Assembly: GCA_048939625.1 (NCBI GenBank)
Contig: JBHLPH010000006.1
Coordinates: 48,650 to 112,649 of the forward strand
DNA from: Promethearchaeota archaeon
GTDB taxonomy: Archaea; Asgardarchaeota; Hermodarchaeia; Hermodarchaeales; Hermodarchaeaceae
Reading direction: 5' to 3'
Length of the DNA stretch: 64,000 nt
Shown here: positions 3,145 to 13,301 of the stretch, piece by piece
How positions within the stretch are numbered: position 1 is the stretch's first letter
Layout: each line of letters opens with the position of its first letter
Notes under the pieces: generated by a model
Database searches by the model: none
What the model was told of the DNA's origin: nothing
What the model saw: only the letters and a program-made list of their open reading frames with translations
Made by a program: the position numbers and the translations under genes

Positions 3145-4098
3145 CTAAGTCTCAAGTAGAGAGTTAAGCTGATTTTGACCCAGTCCCGGAAATTTTCGAT
3201 GAGGGAACATAACCATGGTGTGAACTACGGTACTATATGGAGACTCCTTGAGTTCCAGATCAATTGCTTCCACATGATGTAAGGTATCGACGGCAAAATC
3301 AAGGAGCAGAGTGGGTTCATCACTTAGAAGATATGAGGTCCAATATTCTAGCGGGTATCGCTGCTCAAGCCAAGCAACCAACTTTCTGGGACTAGTATTC
3401 TCTGCATTATAACGGATACGACTTCGAAACTCGATTTGATTACCAGCGCTGCGAAGCCATTCAAGTGTAAAACGTAAAGTGCCCGAATTTTGTAATTGGC
3501 GAAGCACCATGCGAACACGCTTGGCGCTCATCTCTGTTCTTCGAGCCATATCTACGACTGGCATCCGTGGATTTTCTCGCAGACACCTTAATACATTCAA
3601 TTTAATTTTCGTGAAATCAAAGTTTAAGGCCTGAGGTTTTGAATGCACTTCTTTTGTGATATGGGGATGCATTTCGATGACATCATGAATTTCGACATCA
3701 GACACACGATCAAGACCACGGAGAAATTGTCCAAAGTTCACGGTTCCCATGTTACCTCGAACTTCCGCTTCCACATCATAGGTGCCATCCGCCAAACGTG
3801 AGACTAACCGAACGACCGGACTTTGCCCAATTTGGTGAATGAATTCATGTGCATCTTCGGATCCGAGGGTTGATACCTCAGCTATGACCAAGTGGGCCCC
3901 AAGAGCCTCTGAGTTGAGTTCAACGAGAAACCGCTGAATTACTCCTAACTCAATCAGCTTTTCAATGCGGCTTCGAATCGTTTTACTCGACACTTCTAAT
4001 TTTCGTGCTAGTGCTCGAAAGGACTGCCGACAATTGCCTTCTAATTCGGCTATAATACCTTTATCAACCAGGTCCACGGGGGTCACCGAACCCTCCAA
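3145..4098 (-). CDS. Tandem-duplicated Lrp/AsnC-type transcriptional regulator (HTH-RAM-HTH-RAM)
   Basis: DLVDKGIIAELEGNCRQSFRALARKL and a second HTH, VLRCLRENPRMPVVDMARRT; true start probably GTG 4086 (TTGGAGGG reads as an RBS). Confidence 0.85.
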   Translation of the reverse strand: MEGSVTPVDLVDKGIIAELEGNCRQSFRALARKLEVSSKTIRSRIEKLIELGVIQRFLVELNSEALGAHLVIAEVSTLGSEDAHEFIHQIGQSPVVRLVSRLADGTYDVEAEVRGNMGTVNFGQFLRGLDRVSDVEIHDVIEMHPHITKEVHSKPQALNFDFTKIKLNVLRCLRENPRMPVVDMARRTEMSAKRVRMVLRQLQNSGTLRFTLEWLRSAGNQIEFRSRIRYNAENTSPRKLVAWLEQRYPLEYWTSYLLSDEPTLLLDFAVDTLHHVEAIDLELKESPYSTVVHTMVMFPHRKFPGLGQNQLNSLLET

Positions 4099-4321
4099 CT
4101 AACTGTACATTCAGGTTAAAGAGGTATATATCCATTCATGTTCACGGTTTCTAGCCATGTAAGCCCCGAAAACAGGATTTTACACCGGATTGTTCAAAAA
4201 TGGGTAAAAAATTGGTTAGCAAAGTTCATTCTTGAACCTCTAAGCTCCCCTTGATTGATATGTGATGCCGCCTTTGGGTTACATGTTCTCAAGAACCTCA
4301 TAATTGGATGGTGATGGAAAA

Positions 4322-4585
4322 ATGGCAACCAAAGATTTGGGACATGAACCGCAGCAACTTACTCAAATTCCTCAGGACGAGAAAGAGCAAATCGTTTACA
4401 ATTGGGTGTACGTAACAGAGAAAGGCTATGATATTGATGTGCAAGTGACTGTAGTAGGTCAAGAATTGTTCACGATTGATACGCCCTGGTATCGCGCACA
4501 AGTAAGAACCTACGATTTAGTTGACACTGTTGTTCGCTTCTGTCAATCCATGTATGGATTAGGTGTTCTGACTGTAATTATCTAA
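4322..4585 (+). CDS. Hypothetical protein, divergent from the Lrp regulator
   Basis: ORF with GGTGA RBS filling the intergenic gap; no recognised motif. Confidence 0.5.
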   Translation: MATKDLGHEPQQLTQIPQDEKEQIVYNWVYVTEKGYDIDVQVTVVGQELFTIDTPWYRAQVRTYDLVDTVVRFCQSMYGLGVLTVII

Positions 4586-4618
4586 TAACGGCAACAGACA
4601 TAAGTTTCTGAGAACTCT

Positions 4619-4652
4619 AAAAAAAGAAACAGGAGGAGGCAAGGCCTCCCAT
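4619..4652 (-). terminator. GGAGGC/GCCTCC hairpin plus T-tract
   Basis: Minus strand reads atgggaggccttgcctcctcctgtttcttttttt, just after the stop at 4679. Confidence 0.55.
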
Positions 4653-4678
4653 GAATTGTTAGTTTGTTTTAATTAGCT

Positions 4679-5127
4679 CTAAAGAATGATGATTTTGTTC
4701 GCATCGGGTGGTGCAAAGTCCCAGACATCATTTGTATTTCCGCAGTGAACAACAAAATTATCACTGGAGTATGGACCAAGTCAGATTCCTGCAACTGTTT
4801 CAGGATCAATGAAGAAAGGCCAATCATAATAGTAAGGCACCACTTCAAGAGTTTGTTCATTGACATCGTTGAAGAAGATCTTATTGCCACTGCCACCATC
4901 AGTAAGTGTTCCCCAAAATGGAGTCCAAGCTTCACCCCAGAGTCCGAAATAAATGCCCATAAAGCCATGACCAGAAATTGTATTACCAGCTATCCGGAAT
5001 CATAGAGCCAGGCATCAAAGATCCCGCCACCTGTTGCGTCATCCAGATAAATATCGTTGCAGAGAATGTAGGACCTAAGGGAATGGATTCCTGTAAAACC
5101 ATAAGTCCAATCGACTAATACAAACAT
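4679..5127 (-). pseudogene. Decayed parallel beta-helix (NosD/CASH-like) protein fragment
   Basis: Reconstructed reading: ...SYILCNDIYLDDATGGGIFDAWLYDS/[frameshift ~4993]IAGNTISGHGFMGIYFG...AGI*LGPYSSDNFVVH...; in-frame TGA at 4781-4783. Confidence 0.6.
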
Positions 5128-5141
5128 GTCAGATTCGAAAG

Positions 5142-5576
5142 CTAATTCGCCTTCAATTTTGGTGGTTTACATTGAGTGAATAAGGTCTTGCTAGGTTCTT
5201 TGTCAAAATAATATGAAGCAACCCAGACACCCTCATCGCTAAAGAGATCTAGATTAAACCCGATTGTTTGGAGATTTAGAAGATATTGAAACAGCAGAAT
5301 TGTTTCTTCAAGGGTTAGACGAAGTTCAGGTTGATTGAGTGTGGTCATCTCATTGGATGATAAGTTGGCATCTAGCCCCCACATCTTTTCAGGAAGAATC
5401 ACCTCGATATCCATCCGGATTCGCTCTGGTTCATCTGATTGTCGGACGAGGAGGATTCGGATTCGATTGGTTTCTTGTACAGTGACAGCCATTTCAGAGA
5501 TTTGATTAAACACGAGTTCATCTTCATGAATGGAACGCAGTCGCCTGTATTCTTTAATCAAATCCGAAAACCTCAT
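5142..5576 (-). CDS. Hypothetical protein
   Basis: 144-aa ORF with AGGAG RBS and normal composition. Confidence 0.7.
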   Translation of the reverse strand: MRFSDLIKEYRRLRSIHEDELVFNQISEMAVTVQETNRIRILLVRQSDEPERIRMDIEVILPEKMWGLDANLSSNEMTTLNQPELRLTLEETILLFQYLLNLQTIGFNLDLFSDEGVWVASYYFDKEPSKTLFTQCKPPKLKAN

Positions 5577-5922
5577 GTCATCCTAGCTCCTTGTGGGGTC
5601 GCCCCTCCAATTGCGTGGATAATAAGCGTAAAGAATGACTGGTGAGGGTGGGTTTTCTATTGACCGGTACTAGGGAGGGTCAAAAAAGTCTGCAAACAGA
5701 AGAAACATGGCTGTTCTGGAACGTGAACCCGTGCTAAATGGAACCCCACTGATTCTGGTAAAGAAATCGCTCAGAGGCAAGGCTTTTTATAGGGGTGAAC
5801 GTTTGGCAGGTGTATCAGCACCCAATGGCGAATTGTGTTTGGGAAAAAATCCAGGTATGGTAGAGTCCCGAGTTACGTTCTCTTTTTGGATCCTGATTTG
5901 ATATAGACACGTGGTACCGAAA

Positions 5923-6420
5923 ATGAGCTACGATAGAGAGCCTGTTGAGGCAACAGTCGCAGACCTGCGACCCAGTATGAAAAGTTTGAACATCACCTTC
6001 AAAGTCGTCGAAAAAGGCGAAGAACGCGAAGTCACCTCCCGCAAAGACGGGGAAACCCATCGTGTTCTTGATGCTGTCGCCGGTGACTCCACTGGCACCG
6101 TTATTCTTAGTTTGTGGGACGATATGATCGACACCGTCGAACAAGACAAAAGTTACCGCTTAGAAAACGGTTACACCAGCTTGTTCCAAGGCCACCTCCG
6201 ATTGAACATCGGACGCTATGGTGAACTAAAAGACACAGACAGTGAAATCGAAGAAATCGACATGGACAACGATCTCTCCGCTGCCGAACACGAACGCCCC
6301 CCACGCCGCTATGGCGGCTATAGTCGGGGTTATAGTGGCGGTGGTGGTGGTTATCGTCGTGGTGGCGGCGGTTCACGCCGTGGCGGACGAGACCGAGATC
6401 GCGGTCGTGGTCGATACTAA
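5923..6420 (+). CDS. ssb: Single-stranded DNA-binding protein (crenarchaeal-type single OB fold) with Gly/Arg/Tyr-rich tail
   Basis: VADLRP...GDSTGTVILSLWD...ENGYTSLFQGHLRLNIGRYG; RGG-rich C-terminus. Confidence 0.9.
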   Translation: MSYDREPVEATVADLRPSMKSLNITFKVVEKGEEREVTSRKDGETHRVLDAVAGDSTGTVILSLWDDMIDTVEQDKSYRLENGYTSLFQGHLRLNIGRYGELKDTDSEIEEIDMDNDLSAAEHERPPRRYGGYSRGYSGGGGGYRRGGGGSRRGGRDRDRGRGRY

Positions 6421-6518
6421 TCTACGAACACACACGGAGGCACAGCCACAAAATATTCTGGCATGACCTCCCGTTTTCTTTTTTTAAAAAAGCCTGCAAA
6501 AATCCTAGGAAAAAGGTG

Positions 6519-6989
6519 TTAGTTCGATTCACGATCAATTCGTGACCATTTGAAGCCACGAGACCGGCGAACAGGTGGATTGCGACGGTTTGGGATTCGT
6601 TTGTTTCCCTTTGAATCTTGTGATGATGAGCGAGACTTTGAGGATAAATTCCGTTCGGTATTTACTTCAGAGATTGGGTTGACTGCTGGTTCGAGTTTTC
6701 CGTTTCGTCCCAGACTGACTTGTAATCGTCCTTGAAATAGACCTGATTGCCCCCCAATGATCCGAAACGCCTTCCCATCTTCAATTTGGGTAATCTCTTC
6801 ATCCCATAATGTTAAGAGCATAACACCGGTTTCATCGCCGATAAGCACATCGGCAACTTGATGGTTGGAGCCATCACTGCGGCTTTTGACCTTCCGGATG
6901 GCTTGGGTTTTTAGAACTTGAAATTTAATCGTGATTCCTCGTTGATAGGGCTGGAGATGGACGAGTTTCTGTGCTTGCTTACTTGACAC
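6519..6989 (-). CDS. ssb: Second single-OB SSB paralog with a basic tail
   Basis: VADVLIGDETGVMLLTLWD...LFQGRLQVSLGRNG; start inferred at GTG 6989. Confidence 0.8.
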   Translation of the reverse strand: MSSKQAQKLVHLQPYQRGITIKFQVLKTQAIRKVKSRSDGSNHQVADVLIGDETGVMLLTLWDEEITQIEDGKAFRIIGGQSGLFQGRLQVSLGRNGKLEPAVNPISEVNTERNLSSKSRSSSQDSKGNKRIPNRRNPPVRRSRGFKWSRIDRESN

Positions 6990-7169
6990 AACAATGACCT
7001 TTCGTGAGGTTGCTGATCTGCGAGTCCAAAAAGCCGCCGTGACCCACAGATACACCACACGCGAGTAAGTAGCTAAGAGCCGCGAAACTTTCGAATAACA
7101 GACCGAAAGACTGATTCTCGAAGCCCCTTAAATATCTACCCCGTTATTCAGATGCTGAATCCTTGCTGT

Positions 7170-8006
7170 TCATTCTGAGTCCTTTATTTCCTCACCCGGT
7201 GTGATGATCACCTTTTTCTGACGCCGTCGCCAGACAAGGAAACCGCCAACCACCAAACATAACCCGATAGCCCACGGGGTGACTAACAAGACCATCGGCA
7301 GCTCATCATCATATGGTGGTGGGGGTGGTCCATTATCGGGATTATTGTCAACGCGAATGTTGTCAATCCATTGGTGAGAGGTCGTGTAATTGTGCCAGAA
7401 TGAGATAAAGAAAAATGCGGAGGCACTGAAAGTGTTTTCGTGAACGGGCCAATTATCGATAAAGATCTCGTTGGTCGTCCGATTCAGCCAGACATAGAGG
7501 TACCCGTCGTAGCGGCGGACGATTTCAACGTGCATCATCTCATAAATCGATCGTGAATCATCTCCCAGTGTTGTGTTTTTGTAGCCATCCATGATTCGAC
7601 GAACATTGTTCTCCATGAGCACGAGTTGATATTCACCCCTTTCTGTTCGCAAGTAATATCCATTGCTGGGATAATCGAGATTGGCCACATCGAGTGCGAT
7701 GAAGAAGACCTCCCAACCACCGTGCAAGTACGTGTCCCACGAATAGATGTCAAAACTCCAGAAACCATAGGCATTGGTACTGGCACGAGATGCGTAATTT
7801 TGATAATCACCTGTGGCGTAGAGCCGATCTTGTGGATACCCCTCCGGCACCATTGTGAACCCTCCAATGTATACAGTCCAGTCCTCGAGAGTTCCATCGA
7901 ACTCCTCAATCCATTGGAGAATCGCGATGCGGGAATCAGGGATTGTAAATCTCACAAAAAGCAATGTAGCTAGAAACAAAACCGGGAAAAGCAGCCTTTT
8001 CTTCAC
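7170..8006 (-). CDS. Single-pass surface protein, paralog 1 (ConA/LamG-like beta-sandwich ectodomain, Pro linker, conserved TM and tail)
   Basis: Signal peptide; WIEEFDGTLEDWT, YGFWSFDIY, WIDNIRVDNNP; C-terminal VLLVTPWAIGLC...WRRRQKKVIITPGEE; fold call is inference. Confidence 0.75.
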   Translation of the reverse strand: MKKRLLFPVLFLATLLFVRFTIPDSRIAILQWIEEFDGTLEDWTVYIGGFTMVPEGYPQDRLYATGDYQNYASRASTNAYGFWSFDIYSWDTYLHGGWEVFFIALDVANLDYPSNGYYLRTERGEYQLVLMENNVRRIMDGYKNTTLGDDSRSIYEMMHVEIVRRYDGYLYVWLNRTTNEIFIDNWPVHENTFSASAFFFISFWHNYTTSHQWIDNIRVDNNPDNGPPPPPYDDELPMVLLVTPWAIGLCLVVGGFLVWRRRQKKVIITPGEEIKDSE

Positions 8007-8143
8007 GTACAAGCCCTCCAACCTGACAGGAAATATGTTATCGTCTCTTTTGTGTTGGTTTGATTTAAGTGGCTGTGAGTTATTGGGGTCATAAAAGTGC
8101 CGAAAAAAAGTAAAAATCGTCTTATTTGTAACCCTGCCCCGTA

Positions 8144-9127
8144 TTATTCAGGTAGTTGGAGGGTGTCCCAGAACGCTTCGTTAAGTCCGGGATAGAATCG
8201 ATGCTGATAATGGATGATTTGTTTGACGGAAACAACCCCGGGAGCCGCTCTGACGGCTCTGATGAGTTCAGGGGTCTGGCTCATGTATTCAAGCAGAAAC
8301 AAGGTAAAAATCACCGGCTCTGAGGCACTAGCAAAAGTGTACCAGATTTCCAAGGGATATCGCTGTTGCAACCACTCCACAAGCGCCCATCTCGCATCCG
8401 AGCCCCCCTGATACCCTATACGGACTAAAAACCGAGTATACCCCGTTGCCGCCACATCTGAATCAATGCGCGCATGAAAACACGCCAGGTTGGACAGCCG
8501 ATCGCCTACGCCTTTGGCTTTCACCCAAAACTCAGAAGTGGATCCCTCACGAAGAAGTAACTTATCGAGAATCCGCCGTACCCGTCGAGGGCTAAATCCC
8601 GAACGTTGACTGATTTCCTTGATTTGCATCCGCAAATCATGCCTGAGGCACGCCAAGACATGCACATCTTCAGGTTTGAGTTCGCATTTTTGGCCCCGTT
8701 GAACGACGAGCGTATGAAACTCAACTTCCGATATTTCTGGTTGTTCATGAAGAAAGTTGGTGAGTTCATCCAAGCCCTTAGACCCCTTATACATTCCCCA
8801 ACAGAGAAGATCCCCATCAGCAAGAATGGTTATTATGTCAATCATAGGACACGCGCCAAGCCGGTTCAGAAGGGCTTCGTTAGTCGTTGAGTCTGTGGTG
8901 GTGAGAAACGCCCAGAAGTATTCAGCATCCAGCATGGCCAGCGACGGATAAATCGTGAACCGAAGAATCACCTTGTTTTCAAGGAGGCGATCATAGCGTT
9001 TTTTCACCGAGGTAACCGACAGATTCAGCCTCCGAGCCAAAGCATGGAACGAAATCCGACCGTTTTCTATCAATGCCATGACAATATCCTTATCGATTTG
9101 GTCCACACATACCACCAAGAAACCCAA
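8144..9127 (-). CDS. Tandem Lrp/AsnC-type regulator
   Basis: DQIDKDIVMALIENGRISFHALARRL plus second HTH VLACLRHDLRMQIKEISQRSG. Confidence 0.85.
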   Translation of the reverse strand: MGFLVVCVDQIDKDIVMALIENGRISFHALARRLNLSVTSVKKRYDRLLENKVILRFTIYPSLAMLDAEYFWAFLTTTDSTTNEALLNRLGACPMIDIITILADGDLLCWGMYKGSKGLDELTNFLHEQPEISEVEFHTLVVQRGQKCELKPEDVHVLACLRHDLRMQIKEISQRSGFSPRRVRRILDKLLLREGSTSEFWVKAKGVGDRLSNLACFHARIDSDVAATGYTRFLVRIGYQGGSDARWALVEWLQQRYPLEIWYTFASASEPVIFTLFLLEYMSQTPELIRAVRAAPGVVSVKQIIHYQHRFYPGLNEAFWDTLQLPE

Positions 9128-9218
9128 GCATCACTCCTACACGCTAATAGGGTAAATAGTCAGCGGTGTAATTCTCTTTGAAAGATCAAATAAGACCAAA
9201 AAATAGTTCTATAGTCGA

Positions 9219-10088
9219 CTACGCTGACTCCTCGAGTTCCTCTCCAGGCGTAATCTCCACCTTCTTTTGGCGGCGCCGCCACACCACCAAAGCACCCACG
9301 ACCACACATAAGCCAATCGCCCAAGGGGTTACCAACAGGACAATTTCAAGACCGGACCCACCAATAAGAGGGGGTGGAGGAGGAGGTGGTCCATTTTCGG
9401 GATTATTGTCCACTTGAATGTTGTCAATCCATTGAGTATAATTGTGGCGCATTCTGATACCAAAATAAGAACAAGTCGTAGGGCAAGGGCCCGGATGAAG
9501 GGTTTCGTTGGTTTGGAAGGAAATTCCCGTTTCGGGCTCATCTCCTGTATAGTTGAGCCACACATACAAATGTCCCTGAGGTGTTCGGACGATGTCTACA
9601 TGAACCATCTCAATAATGTGAGGCCCATATAAGGGCTCTACAAACCCACCATGGTAGGAGATGATACCATTCATGACTTTTTGGAGTTCGTACTTGTGCG
9701 GTTTTGCTACATCACCCCCATACCAAGTCTCCTTGTATTCTATTTGGTAGGAATTGAGTGGATCTCCTGAAGATGCGAAGCCGTCAGCGAGGAAAAAAAT
9801 AGTATAACGCCTATGGTTATCATTTTTAACATAATATATGTCGAACCGCCACCAGCCATAGGCGACGTCACTTTCATGGAAGATGAAACTTTCAAAGCGG
9901 TTTGTTGCAGTGAGCCGACCGTTATCAATGGCAAAACCTCCACGTAAGGTTGTCCAGTTATCGAGAGCATCGTCACCAGTGAAGGTTTCACCCCATCTAG
10001 GTGTCGCAGTGCTTGAATCGGGAACTGTAAATGTGACGCAAAGCAATGCCATGAACAGCATTGCTGCGAAGCACAGCCTTCTTCTCAT
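9219..10088 (-). CDS. Single-pass surface protein, paralog 2
   Basis: Signal peptide; WGETF...LDNWT, YGWWRFDIY, WIDNIQVDNNPENGP; poly-Pro linker; same C-terminal motif. Confidence 0.75.
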   Translation of the reverse strand: MRRRLCFAAMLFMALLCVTFTVPDSSTATPRWGETFTGDDALDNWTTLRGGFAIDNGRLTATNRFESFIFHESDVAYGWWRFDIYYVKNDNHRRYTIFFLADGFASSGDPLNSYQIEYKETWYGGDVAKPHKYELQKVMNGIISYHGGFVEPLYGPHIIEMVHVDIVRTPQGHLYVWLNYTGDEPETGISFQTNETLHPGPCPTTCSYFGIRMRHNYTQWIDNIQVDNNPENGPPPPPPPLIGGSGLEIVLLVTPWAIGLCVVVGALVVWRRRQKKVEITPGEELEESA

Positions 10089-10316
10089 TCAGAGACCCTC
10101 CAACCTGAGCCATATTGACTAGTATTGTATATATCTGTTCGGATTTCATCGGCAGCTATGGTAGCTTGTGACCTGAGATATTCGGTACTTCCTGGCATTT
10201 AAGCCACGTTCACCGGTTCAGGGCAGAAACAGGACAAACTGCATGGAATTTAGAATATTTTGTTTCCTAAGGAGGAACCAAAAGAGCCAGGATTGACTTG
10301 CACTTGAAGAAAATGG

Positions 10317-10350
10317 GAATACCAGGGACGTGGATGCCGCCCTGGTATTC
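10317..10350. terminator. 11-bp-stem hairpin downstream of paralog 3
   Basis: GAATACCAGGG-N12-CCCTGGTATTC, followed on the minus strand by ccattttctt. Confidence 0.5.
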
Positions 10351-10457
10351 GTGTCCTATGCGGATGGAGTGTGTATTTTTGAAAACATTCGACTCGGGTA
10401 ACTATTCTTCGTGAAGGCTCAGTGTGAGAATCTGGATCGATAATCAACCTGATGACA

Positions 10458-11270
10458 TTATTCTTTGAGTTCTTCTCCTGGTGTTATGTCCACTTTCTTT
10501 TGGCGGTGTCGCCAAACTACTAATCCTCCTACTACTAAGCATAAACCAATAGCCCAGGGCGTTACGAGCAGAACTTCCGGCGGAATTTTATTAATTGTTT
10601 CAGTGTTTAAAGCGGGGTCAATGGGATCTGGTCCGTTCTCTGGATTGTTATCAACGCAAATGTTGTCAATCCATACCTGCTGATGGTGGTCAAGAACGAT
10701 GTCAAAATAGGCAGAGGTGGTATGACTGACATCATAAGTGTCAAAGAAGATATGGTTCGTTGAGTAATTCGCCCAGACATACATGTACCCATCATATCTT
10801 CGAACGATGTCAAAATGCATCATGATATGAATTTGATCGTACAAAGTGCCATTACGAAACCCATCCAAGTAATGTGGTTCATAATCCATCGTTTTCATTA
10901 TTTGATAGAAAAAGGCCCAGCCCTCAAGACAATATCCATTTTGTGGGCGATCCCAGAGTATATCCTCAGAAGCAATAAAGAATACGTGCCAGCTCAGATG
11001 GTAGTCAGTTCTGATGAAATACACATCGAAGCTCCAATACCCATAGGAGTTCGTACTCTCATGGCGCATGACGTTTATTTCACGGTTTGTTCCCGAGACT
11101 CGGCCGTCCTCAATAACAAATCCGCCTTCAACTATCGTCCAGCCATCTAAGACGCCATCATCAAAGTCGTCCGTCCATTGGATGCTCGCGGAGCTTGATA
11201 GTGAGAATTTACCGATGCTCAAAAGCAGAAGCAGCATCAGGACTGGAATTATTACGAAGCGTTTTCGCAT
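10458..11270 (-). CDS. Single-pass surface protein, paralog 3
   Basis: MRKRFVIIPV signal peptide; WTDDFDDGVLDGWT, YGYWSFDVY, WIDNICVDNNPENGP; same C-terminal motif. Confidence 0.75.
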   Translation of the reverse strand: MRKRFVIIPVLMLLLLLSIGKFSLSSSASIQWTDDFDDGVLDGWTIVEGGFVIEDGRVSGTNREINVMRHESTNSYGYWSFDVYFIRTDYHLSWHVFFIASEDILWDRPQNGYCLEGWAFFYQIMKTMDYEPHYLDGFRNGTLYDQIHIMMHFDIVRRYDGYMYVWANYSTNHIFFDTYDVSHTTSAYFDIVLDHHQQVWIDNICVDNNPENGPDPIDPALNTETINKIPPEVLLVTPWAIGLCLVVGGLVVWRHRQKKVDITPGEELKE

Positions 11271-11408
11271 GACATACACACTCCAGAAGTGGCTTCCAAA
11301 AACTGAGGTCACTCCACTAAGGAGAAGTGTGTCTTCGTGGCATATTAACCCGTGTTTGGTGATCGGTTTACAAAGTGAACGCTACTTATAAGGCGCTTGG
11401 ACGGTTTG

Positions 11409-12371
11409 TCAACCGAGGAGGTGTTGCCAGAACCGTTCGTTTAATCCTGGGTAGTAATGGTGGGCAAAATAGACGATGGGTCGAACGGATACCACATCTT
11501 CGAGTTCTTTGATTCGTTTGATGATTTCAGGTGAATAATTGGCGATGTCGACAAGGAACATCGAAAAGAGGACTGGCGCCGAAGCACTGGCGTGGGTAAA
11601 CCAGTATTCCATGGGATATGTTCGTTTTAGAAGGGCGACGATGGATCGGCGTGTTTCATCGCCACCCTGAAACTCGGTGCGGGCATAGAATCGGGTTGCC
11701 CCACCTTCGGCGACGTCACCATCGGTGCGGGTATGAAAACATTGTTGGGCGGTCCGATAGTCGCCAACGCCGTTTTCGTGGAACATTTGTTCGTCAGCAG
11801 AACCTTCGGTGCCAATTAATTCGGTGAGCAGTTTTCGGACCCGTCGTTGGGTCATCCCAGTGTTTTGGGCAATGTCTTTGATGGGCATGCGCACGTTTTC
11901 GCGCAGGCAGCGAAGGACTTGGAGTTGCATGGATGTGAGGGGGCAGCGCTTTCCTCTTTCGATTAAAATCGTATGAAATTCAACCTCACGGATATCGTCG
12001 AGCTCATGGAGGAACAAGGTGAGTTCGTCGAGTTCTTTGGGTCCGACGTATTTTCCCCAGACCATCACGTTGCCATCTGCTAGCAGATTGACATTGTTGA
12101 TCATGGGGTAGGCACCCAGGAAATCGCGGAAGGTTTCGCTGGGTGGATGATGTTTCAATGTTAGGATAGCTGTGAAGAAGGAGGCGTCAAGCATGGCGTA
12201 GCTGGGGATGATGAAATAGCGGCGAATGACCTTCGCTTTTTCCATCTTGAGAATCCGGTTACGCACAGCTGTAACAGAGAGCCCCAGTTTTCGCCCGATA
12301 GCCCGGTAAGAAATCCGTGCGTCCTCTAATAATGTGTAAAGAATCTGTTTGTCAATTAGGTCCACGGGCAT
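11409..12371 (-). CDS. Tandem Lrp/AsnC-type regulator, closest paralog of 8144..9127
   Basis: DLIDKQILYTLLEDARISYRAIGRKL plus VLRCLRENVRMPIKDIAQNTG; shared GVGD...CFH and YPGLNExFW blocks. Confidence 0.85.
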   Translation of the reverse strand: MPVDLIDKQILYTLLEDARISYRAIGRKLGLSVTAVRNRILKMEKAKVIRRYFIIPSYAMLDASFFTAILTLKHHPPSETFRDFLGAYPMINNVNLLADGNVMVWGKYVGPKELDELTLFLHELDDIREVEFHTILIERGKRCPLTSMQLQVLRCLRENVRMPIKDIAQNTGMTQRRVRKLLTELIGTEGSADEQMFHENGVGDYRTAQQCFHTRTDGDVAEGGATRFYARTEFQGGDETRRSIVALLKRTYPMEYWFTHASASAPVLFSMFLVDIANYSPEIIKRIKELEDVVSVRPIVYFAHHYYPGLNERFWQHLLG

Positions 12372-12506
12372 CCTTTGACCTCCCAAGCGCTACACTCTTT
12401 CACCTTATAGCGTAAATATGCAACCCTTCTCACCATTCAATAGGCTTTAGTGAATGACCCAGGCAAACGGAGAGAAAAACGTGTTGATGAGCCTCAAAGG
12501 TCTTAG

Positions 12507-13301
12507 TTATTTGGTGCCAATGGCAAAGACAATGGAGGCGTTAGCTATACCGGTTTCTTTTACTCGAACCTTCAACGCCTCTGCCTCTGTTAGGAGTTCA
12601 GGGGTTCGTTTGTGGGGCTCTAGGGACTGCAAGGTTTTGTCAACTCCCTTAATGAAAGACGCAATCATTGATGCGGATTTGGGGTTTTCACAGCCAAACC
12701 GGTCTTCACAGAACAAGCACTTCACATACCGTGAGGAATCTAGCAAAACAAGATCAGTGAAATGGAGGGCTTCCAGCTCAGCGACTATGGATCGTCGAAA
12801 TAGGGTCTCGTGATGAGTAAGTCCTTTTAGCCGATCGATTTTGGCGGTCCAATGGTGCTCCAGAATATCAGTGTGTTGGGCTTCGCTCTGCGCGCCATCC
12901 TGATACATTTCCGAGACAATGAAATGTCCACCAGGCGTTAAGACCCGCTTAATCTCCGCCAATACAGCGGGGACATTTTCCAGATGGTGTAACGAATTCG
13001 CAATCGACACCGTGTCAAAGAATTCATCTTCAAAGTCCAGTTGTGTGGCATTCATTTCCAAAAAGCTAATTGTTTGATTTTGGAACCTTTTTCTGGCGTG
13101 AGCTAAGTCGTCTTGGTCTATATCAACGCCGACAAAGCTGTCGTAAGTCTTCAATGTCTTCATGAGTGTCTCAATGAAATTGCCTTTTCCAGTAGCCACA
13201 TCCAAGACGGTTCCTCCCGTAATTGTCTTTAGATGGTCGGCAATTTCTCTAGCGCCCGAGGTTTCCAAGCCAGGTAATTCCGCCATGGTTAATTTCTGCA
13301 C
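12507..13301 (-). CDS. Class I SAM-dependent methyltransferase
   Basis: VLDVATGKG, FDTV...LHH, EIKRVLTPGG. Confidence 0.9.
   Translation of the reverse strand: MQKLTMAELPGLETSGAREIADHLKTITGGTVLDVATGKGNFIETLMKTLKTYDSFVGVDIDQDDLAHARKRFQNQTISFLEMNATQLDFEDEFFDTVSIANSLHHLENVPAVLAEIKRVLTPGGHFIVSEMYQDGAQSEAQHTDILEHHWTAKIDRLKGLTHHETLFRRSIVAELEALHFTDLVLLDSSRYVKCLFCEDRFGCENPKSASMIASFIKGVDKTLQSLEPHKRTPELLTEAEALKVRVKETGIANASIVFAIGTK

Follow-up and report, generated by a model that had tools for sequence, protein, structure and literature searches.

A highly conserved transmembrane and tail module on variable CBM66-like surface proteins of a Hermodarchaeales archaeon

The 64,000-nt window analysed here (G000:C61:48650-112649, to which coordinates refer unless another contig or locus is named) comes from a 2.3-Mb, 88%-complete assembly of a Hermodarchaeales archaeon (GCA_048939625.1, contig JBHLPH010000006.1). 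It carries three paralogous genes, A (7170..8006, 278 aa), B (9219..10088, 289 aa) and C (10458..11270, 270 aa), for surface proteins that combine a variable ectodomain with a nearly invariant transmembrane (TM) helix and tail. All three genes lie on the minus strand and encode the same architecture: signal peptide, ConA-like/CBM66-like ectodomain, Pro-rich linker, TM helix, basic cluster and short cytoplasmic tail. The constant TM+tail modules occupy 7188..7292, 9237..9341 and 10470..10574, respectively, also on the minus strand. Together with two genes for Lrp/AsnC-family regulators they form the co-oriented order Lrp (11409-12386) > C > B > Lrp (8144-9127) > A, just as a preliminary description based on the DNA letters alone had it. 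Our results point, with about even confidence, to interchangeable recognition subunits that dock by their TM+tail on one common partner or on each other, with the Lrp proteins exerting ordinary transcriptional control. The preliminary description had proposed a receptor system in which the tail couples ligand sensing to the adjacent regulators. That interpretation is partly supported: these proteins are a genuine and undescribed variety of Asgard surface protein, but one with a narrower range and less signalling character than proposed.

Alignment of the TM+tail of A, B and C shows 29 of 35 columns to be identical, exactly the number first reported. Synonymous sites in this segment are saturated among the three paralogues (proportion of synonymous differences, pS, 0.78-0.92; 13-14 of 17-18 four-fold sites differ), and the codons of the shared ITPGEE differ between copies. 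By contrast, the proportion of nonsynonymous differences (pN) is 0.06-0.09; it reaches 0.39-0.44 for the ectodomain, and the two Lrp paralogues have a pN of 0.36. Saturated synonymous sites combined with low pN show that the tail was neither duplicated nor converted recently. Gene conversion was rejected on these grounds as the explanation for the tail identity, which is accounted for by protein-level purifying selection, as initially suggested. Eight further tail genes from other assemblies follow the pattern of the window paralogues. Over 10 genes from several assemblies, mean identity is 0.85 in the TM+tail and 0.43 in the ectodomain, with pS about 0.7 in both, so that the tail is the more conserved part in the larger alignment as well. 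As an anchor control, 70 family members were collected and pairs were matched at 33-50% ectodomain identity. TM+tail identity in such pairs is 0.82 in the tail subfamily (45 pairs). The same comparison gives 0.44 among 240 pairs with PGF-type/Loki-CTERM anchors (at most 0.73) and 0.37 among 373 pairs with plain anchors (at most 0.70). Thus, the constraint on the TM+tail is real and above even that of a sorting signal, in line with the earlier view that the segment is more than a passive anchor. Since its identity is far above that of matched anchors, binding of a common partner is the natural inference.

The TM helix is conserved on all faces and displays two small-residue stripes, with small residues at i, i+4 and i+8 and Gly at i and i+7. 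The core of the tail, a basic cluster followed by hydrophobic-x-hydrophobic-x-P-G, is fixed in the subfamily. In all 11 members the basic cluster is followed by a conserved extension of 8-15 residues (the tail is given here as 14-residue), and in the full-length model a single helix runs through the basic cluster and leads into an unstructured tail. Pfam and NCBIfam yielded no match for A, B or C. The TM Cys, previously taken to be invariant, is Thr in P0006. Likewise, in the larger set two members have Ser in place of the Thr of T-P-G-E and the allele of GCA_016550405.1 (G003) has Lys, and EE is replaced by KK in one tail member.

The ectodomains were initially thought to share only short motifs. 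They are indeed variable, but those of A, B and C represent one homologous domain that can be aligned end to end at 37-44% identity (42-47% for the full-length proteins). The model of this domain is an all-beta two-sheet sandwich (pLDDT 88.5). Structure searches retrieved CBM66, a GH43-associated domain, legume-lectin-like domains, ERGIC-53, Emp47p, VIP36 and calreticulin, tied near Z 14-16. When a profile of 68 family sequences was compared with solved structures, only CBM66 of Bacillus levanase matched by sequence (E 1.5e-6); the profile of the 11 tail-subfamily members alone falls short of this match. A match to Laminin_G_3 is present in 15 of the 68 relatives. Because only CBM66 matches by sequence and the structural matches are tied, the predicted domain is classified as a CBM66-like ConA-like beta-sandwich and is not demonstrably an L-type lectin. 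The best Foldseek match is CBM66 of Bacillus subtilis levanase SacC (PDB 4B1L/4B1M/4AZZ; E 9e-8, Z 16.3, rmsd 2.6 Å). Unlike the latter, the Asgard ectodomain stands alone on a TM anchor without a hydrolase, has extra loops and is only 15-17% identical, and the fructose specificity of SacC CBM66 cannot be assumed for it. The ectodomain is variable but not free, since the subfamily keeps its own invariant residues (R61, H95, N115, W173 and W213 in P0002 numbering) and an invariant N-glycosylation sequon at N175. It probably binds a glycan or a glycoprotein, whether on a substrate, on another cell or on a virus.

Of 400 Asgard genomes, 98 encode members of the ectodomain family; within the host's taxonomic family every one of the 19 genomes does, often in multiple copies. 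The tail, however, is found in only 2 of the 400, and within the genus its distribution is patchy (2 of 15 genomes). A tail profile search of 1.84 billion representatives recovered it only on this ectodomain subfamily, and pattern scans of genome and metagenome contigs gave no additional tail loci. Most ectodomain relatives end in a PGF-type signal or in a plain TM helix with a few basic residues; one of them passes the Loki-CTERM cut-off, whereas A, B and C give no match to the Loki-CTERM model. In the ectodomain-only tree (a quick tree with midpoint root), the tail genes group together as a single clade (SH-aLRT 99) within a larger tail-less clade (97). Moreover, the second half of the tail-subfamily TM is in register with the PGF-type anchors of the relatives (hhalign 93%, a score of the kind that hydrophobic segments inflate). 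Collectively, these data point to one origin of the tail subfamily, by remodelling or replacing an ordinary anchor. Literature searches gave no description of this ectodomain/tail family or of Loki-CTERM.

Comparison with other strains revealed mosaic alleles. Relative to the positional orthologue in L021, the Lrp gene, intergenic region, promoter and signal peptide are 75-92% identical at the nucleotide level, whereas the ectodomain is 40-70% identical; the corresponding pS values are 0.27 for the signal peptide and 0.85 for the ectodomain. Signal peptides normally drift faster than folded domains. The opposite pattern therefore points to either replacement of the head between fixed flanks or strong diversifying selection. 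The promoter region and signal peptide of paralogue B (10006..10261, minus strand) are common to other strains with a differing mature domain: the match in G003 ends at 10006, the signal-peptidase site (residue 28), and in one further sediment study, contigs of two sequencing runs depart from the reference at 10006 and 10009 and continue into a different mature N-terminus. On the other side of the ectodomain, a G003 block downstream of paralogue A reaches the TM start at 7291. At its 3' end, paralogue C shows 96-97% identity to G003 and L022, with 82% for the core flank there. These alleles, a small sample from bins that may be mixed, suggest that ectodomain heads are exchanged between co-occurring strains. 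Within the window, a 60-nt stretch covering the last beta-strand (7314-7373 and 9375-9434) is 88% identical between paralogues A and B, with identical synonymous codons at 12/15 vs 8/28 (p 0.003); it is a possible short conversion tract or crossover point.

We propose that the tail genes encode a clade-restricted family of polymorphic surface-recognition proteins. Each would display an N-glycosylated CBM66-like beta-sandwich outside the cell. The subfamily would have arisen once from Loki-CTERM/PGF-anchored or plainly anchored relatives, losing the PGF motif and gaining the conserved TM helix and the 14-residue tail, and its members probably stay intact transmembrane proteins. As nearly all TM positions and the tail core are fixed while ectodomain alleles exchange or diversify, the TM+tail is most likely a standard plug, which would pack on a common membrane or cytoplasmic partner or hold together mixed oligomers of paralogues, with the helix and the tail core as one binding surface. 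In this way a single machine for attachment, uptake or recognition could carry differing heads, and the tandem Lrp would provide inherited transcriptional control of the cassette and not be a ligand of the tail. Several observations weigh against this proposal. The neighbours of the tail loci examined gave no common partner gene and differ by locus (SSB genes, beta-lactamase-family genes), and no ligand-binding residues could be placed by comparison with CBM66. Furthermore, the fast evolution of the ectodomain could reflect diversifying or relaxed selection and not exchange, and the conservation statistics come from about 11 distinct tail genes in a handful of related assemblies, which are not independent lineages.

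A more far-reaching version of the proposal, which we regard as rather unlikely, is an archaeal variable-receptor system, in which exchangeable lectin-fold heads, shuffled at the signal-peptide boundary, would all use one invariant TM+tail to act on a shared adaptor for transmembrane signalling or uptake. If true, the lineage closest to eukaryotes would have a prokaryotic counterpart of immunoreceptor/adaptor pairs. Asgard cell-surface biology is almost undescribed, and the present data define a family of CBM66-like surface proteins with a single domain, which is widespread in Asgard archaea and has no name yet. They also provide a dated example of a sortase-type or plain anchor that would have given way to a strictly conserved TM+tail module, a possible step from anchored adhesin to receptor, accompanied by signs of head swapping between co-occurring strains. 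The 35-residue TM+tail can serve as bait, making the partner directly testable. The narrow range (2/400 genomes) limits the weight of these findings and argues against a link by descent to eukaryotic receptors. Recognition by TraA of Myxococcus is allele-specific. Like TraA (PA14 lectin-like, MYXO-CTERM; PMC3325183), the Asgard proteins carry a lectin-like outer domain on a conserved C-terminal membrane segment; they differ from it in fold, in having no repeat stalk and no TraB-like partner, in the presence of several paralogues per genome and in that their signal is not found on unrelated proteins.

Among the alternatives, the one that survives best, though it is unlikely, is that the TM+tail is a derived processing or sorting signal, with an exosortase-family or rhomboid protease (or other membrane enzyme) cleaving or lipidating only this subfamily. 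The tail subfamily has a tripartite look, with a motif-like helix start, the TM helix and an RRRQKK-type cluster, and its TM is in register with the PGF/Loki-CTERM anchors. The preliminary description had suggested a search for archaeosortase and rhomboid genes, and the host genome indeed has an exosortase/archaeosortase-family gene and a rhomboid, along with 10 Loki-CTERM proteins over the cut-off. The former gene (G000 C44:521-1252, L044) is over the TIGR04178 cut-off and gives a weak match to heimdallarchaeosortase; five relatives each have two exosortase/archaeosortase-family genes. The enzymes of this family likely process the 10 or more Loki-CTERM proteins. However, tail-less genomes have both exosortase-family genes just as often, a comparison that includes only two tail-bearing genomes and is thus too small for profiling. 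A patchy distribution of exosortases (PF09721, 3/19 genomes) was disproved by the TIGR04178 search. Known C-terminal sorting signals lie at the extreme C-terminus of otherwise unrelated proteins (PMC3325183), whereas the tail is confined to one homologous clade and continues for another 12-17 residues. The idea of a general sorting signal, also raised at first, is at odds with its absence from any unrelated protein among the representatives searched. Moreover, genuine PGF-type signals in this family are only 44% identical. Most ectodomain relatives, with their PGF-P motif, TM and Arg cluster, resemble Loki-CTERM (NF033507)/PGF-CTERM-archaeosortase proteins; the tail subfamily, although in register with them over the second half of the TM, has lost the PGF motif and gives no model match while showing a conserved extension, twice the conservation and restriction to one protein clade.

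Next in order, and unlikely as well, is an immunity or exclusion array, in which the variable heads would catch viruses, toxins or mating partners as they arrive, leaving the constant TM+tail to block or trigger a common membrane machine. Tandem arrays and deep, exchanged alleles between co-occurring strains are the expectation under frequency-dependent selection, and the presence of the tail in only some genomes of the genus fits too. However, no mobile element, toxin or known defence gene lies beside any locus read, and Lrp-type control suggests nutrient-linked expression. This alternative overlaps with the recognition-subunit reading; only the ligand differs.

The role of the Lrp proteins bears on a further alternative. 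Both are minus-strand, tandem two-unit regulators: that upstream of paralogue A (8144..9127) has an orthologue with the same pairing in L094, and that upstream of paralogue C (11409..12386) has orthologues in L021 (86%) and L095 (82%). Each chain contains two HTH_AsnC/HTH_24 units over the Pfam cut-off and stays below all named NCBIfam equivalog cut-offs. The regulators thus share HTH_AsnC-type DNA-binding units with the Lrp/AsnC family but, unlike its typical members, are tandem and have undergone a lineage-wide expansion. Of 19 genomes, 18 show this expansion, and the copies adjoin genes of many kinds. The host genome has about ten paralogues (window 3145-4098, 8144-9127 and 11409-12386; G000 C53, C9, C81 and C45), up to 9 were detected per relative, and they often adjoin genes of secreted or membrane-anchored proteins. 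A literature search found no paper on tandem two-unit Lrp/AsnC regulators. Assignment as siroheme decarboxylase (fused AhbAB/NirDL) was rejected, the HTH matches all being sub-threshold and the paralogues numerous in each genome.

The association with regulators expected elsewhere does exist, the Lrp > ConA pairing being kept for tail genes in L021, L094 and L095, but it is equally present at tail-less genes of five genomes (G006, G007, G011, G012 and G014), which form the sister group of the tail clade in the ectodomain tree; the tail clade itself lies within this Lrp-linked clade. The Lrp-to-ConA intergenic region (11271..11408, minus strand), a promoter/operator candidate, contains three AT-rich blocks that are conserved before tail-less sister genes too, in the loci of two of these five genomes. 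Furthermore, close Lrp orthologues (66-67%) occur in genomes without a detected tail, and 6 of the 11 tail genes, paralogue B among them, have no Lrp directly upstream in the DNA analysed. The pairing in tail-less sister genes makes the Lrp linkage older than the tail, and Lrp > ConA appears to be an inherited cassette, best read as transcriptional control. It is therefore improbable that the tail is a phospho-Thr/FHA or direct docking site relaying ligand binding to the adjacent tandem Lrp, as envisaged in the preliminary description. Although 5 of 11 tail genes, from three or more assemblies, have a tandem Lrp directly upstream and the host genome gives two kinase-like matches, Ser or Lys can take the place of the Thr, the 88%-complete genome yielded no FHA domain, the two Lrp paralogues are only 47% identical whereas the tails are near-identical, and the tandem-Lrp family is multi-copy and lies next to many kinds of genes. 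Also in this region, a 145-aa soluble protein (protein X; 5142-5576, minus strand) is encoded by 1-4 genes per genome in 18 of the 19 genomes of the family, and in nearly every case a tandem Lrp lies beside it. Its gene directly follows the tail-less ConA gene in G006, G007, G012 and G014 (Lrp > ConA > X) and does not follow tail-bearing genes. Protein X and its homologues have no Pfam, PDB or Atlas match; it is a candidate Lrp co-regulator.

Finally, an ERGIC-53/VIP36-like lectin cargo receptor with a tail that binds a coat or trafficking adaptor is very improbable: despite the same gross architecture in an Asgard archaeon (type I topology, lectin-type beta-sandwich, TM and short basic tail with KK, as in ERGIC-53/LMAN1, VIP36 and Emp47p) and structural matches to ERGIC-53, Emp47p and VIP36 at Z 14.7-16.2, these matches are tied with CBM66 and GH-associated domains, the only sequence match is to CBM66, there is no stalk, the KK lies 9-14 residues from a variable end without FF or a terminal KKFF-type motif (defined in PMC9797344), and the tail is recently derived and present in 2/400 genomes.

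Other features of the locus were also noted. The true starts of paralogues A and C are likely 8006 (GTG) and 11270 (ATG), rather than 8021 and 11312 (database proteins P0002/P0012). Downstream of paralogue C, a conserved 11-bp hairpin followed by a U-rich run (10317..10350, minus strand) sits in a 65-nt element that is 87% conserved in four assemblies behind a paralogue-C-type gene. The hairpin (z about -4.4 to -5.3) is single copy, an Rfam scan of window 4000-13000 gave no match, and the terminator-like element is a candidate terminator or RNA element. Two convergent single-OB SSB-like genes (5911-6420, plus strand; 6519-7058, minus strand), one with a Gly/Arg/Tyr-rich tail, mark the place where the array is inserted in several assemblies. 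GCA_016550405.1, listed as Hermodarchaeia by Eme et al. (10.1101/2023.03.07.531504), has a contig 88% identical to the locus over 3.4 kb. Since this assembly has two differing versions of the SSB-adjacent locus (L022 and L094), its bin probably mixes strains or species. At three loci, tail-bearing genes are flanked by genes for membrane-anchored beta-lactamase-family (PF00144) serine hydrolases (L021 8441-9598, L093 2-1012 and L095 1397-1699).

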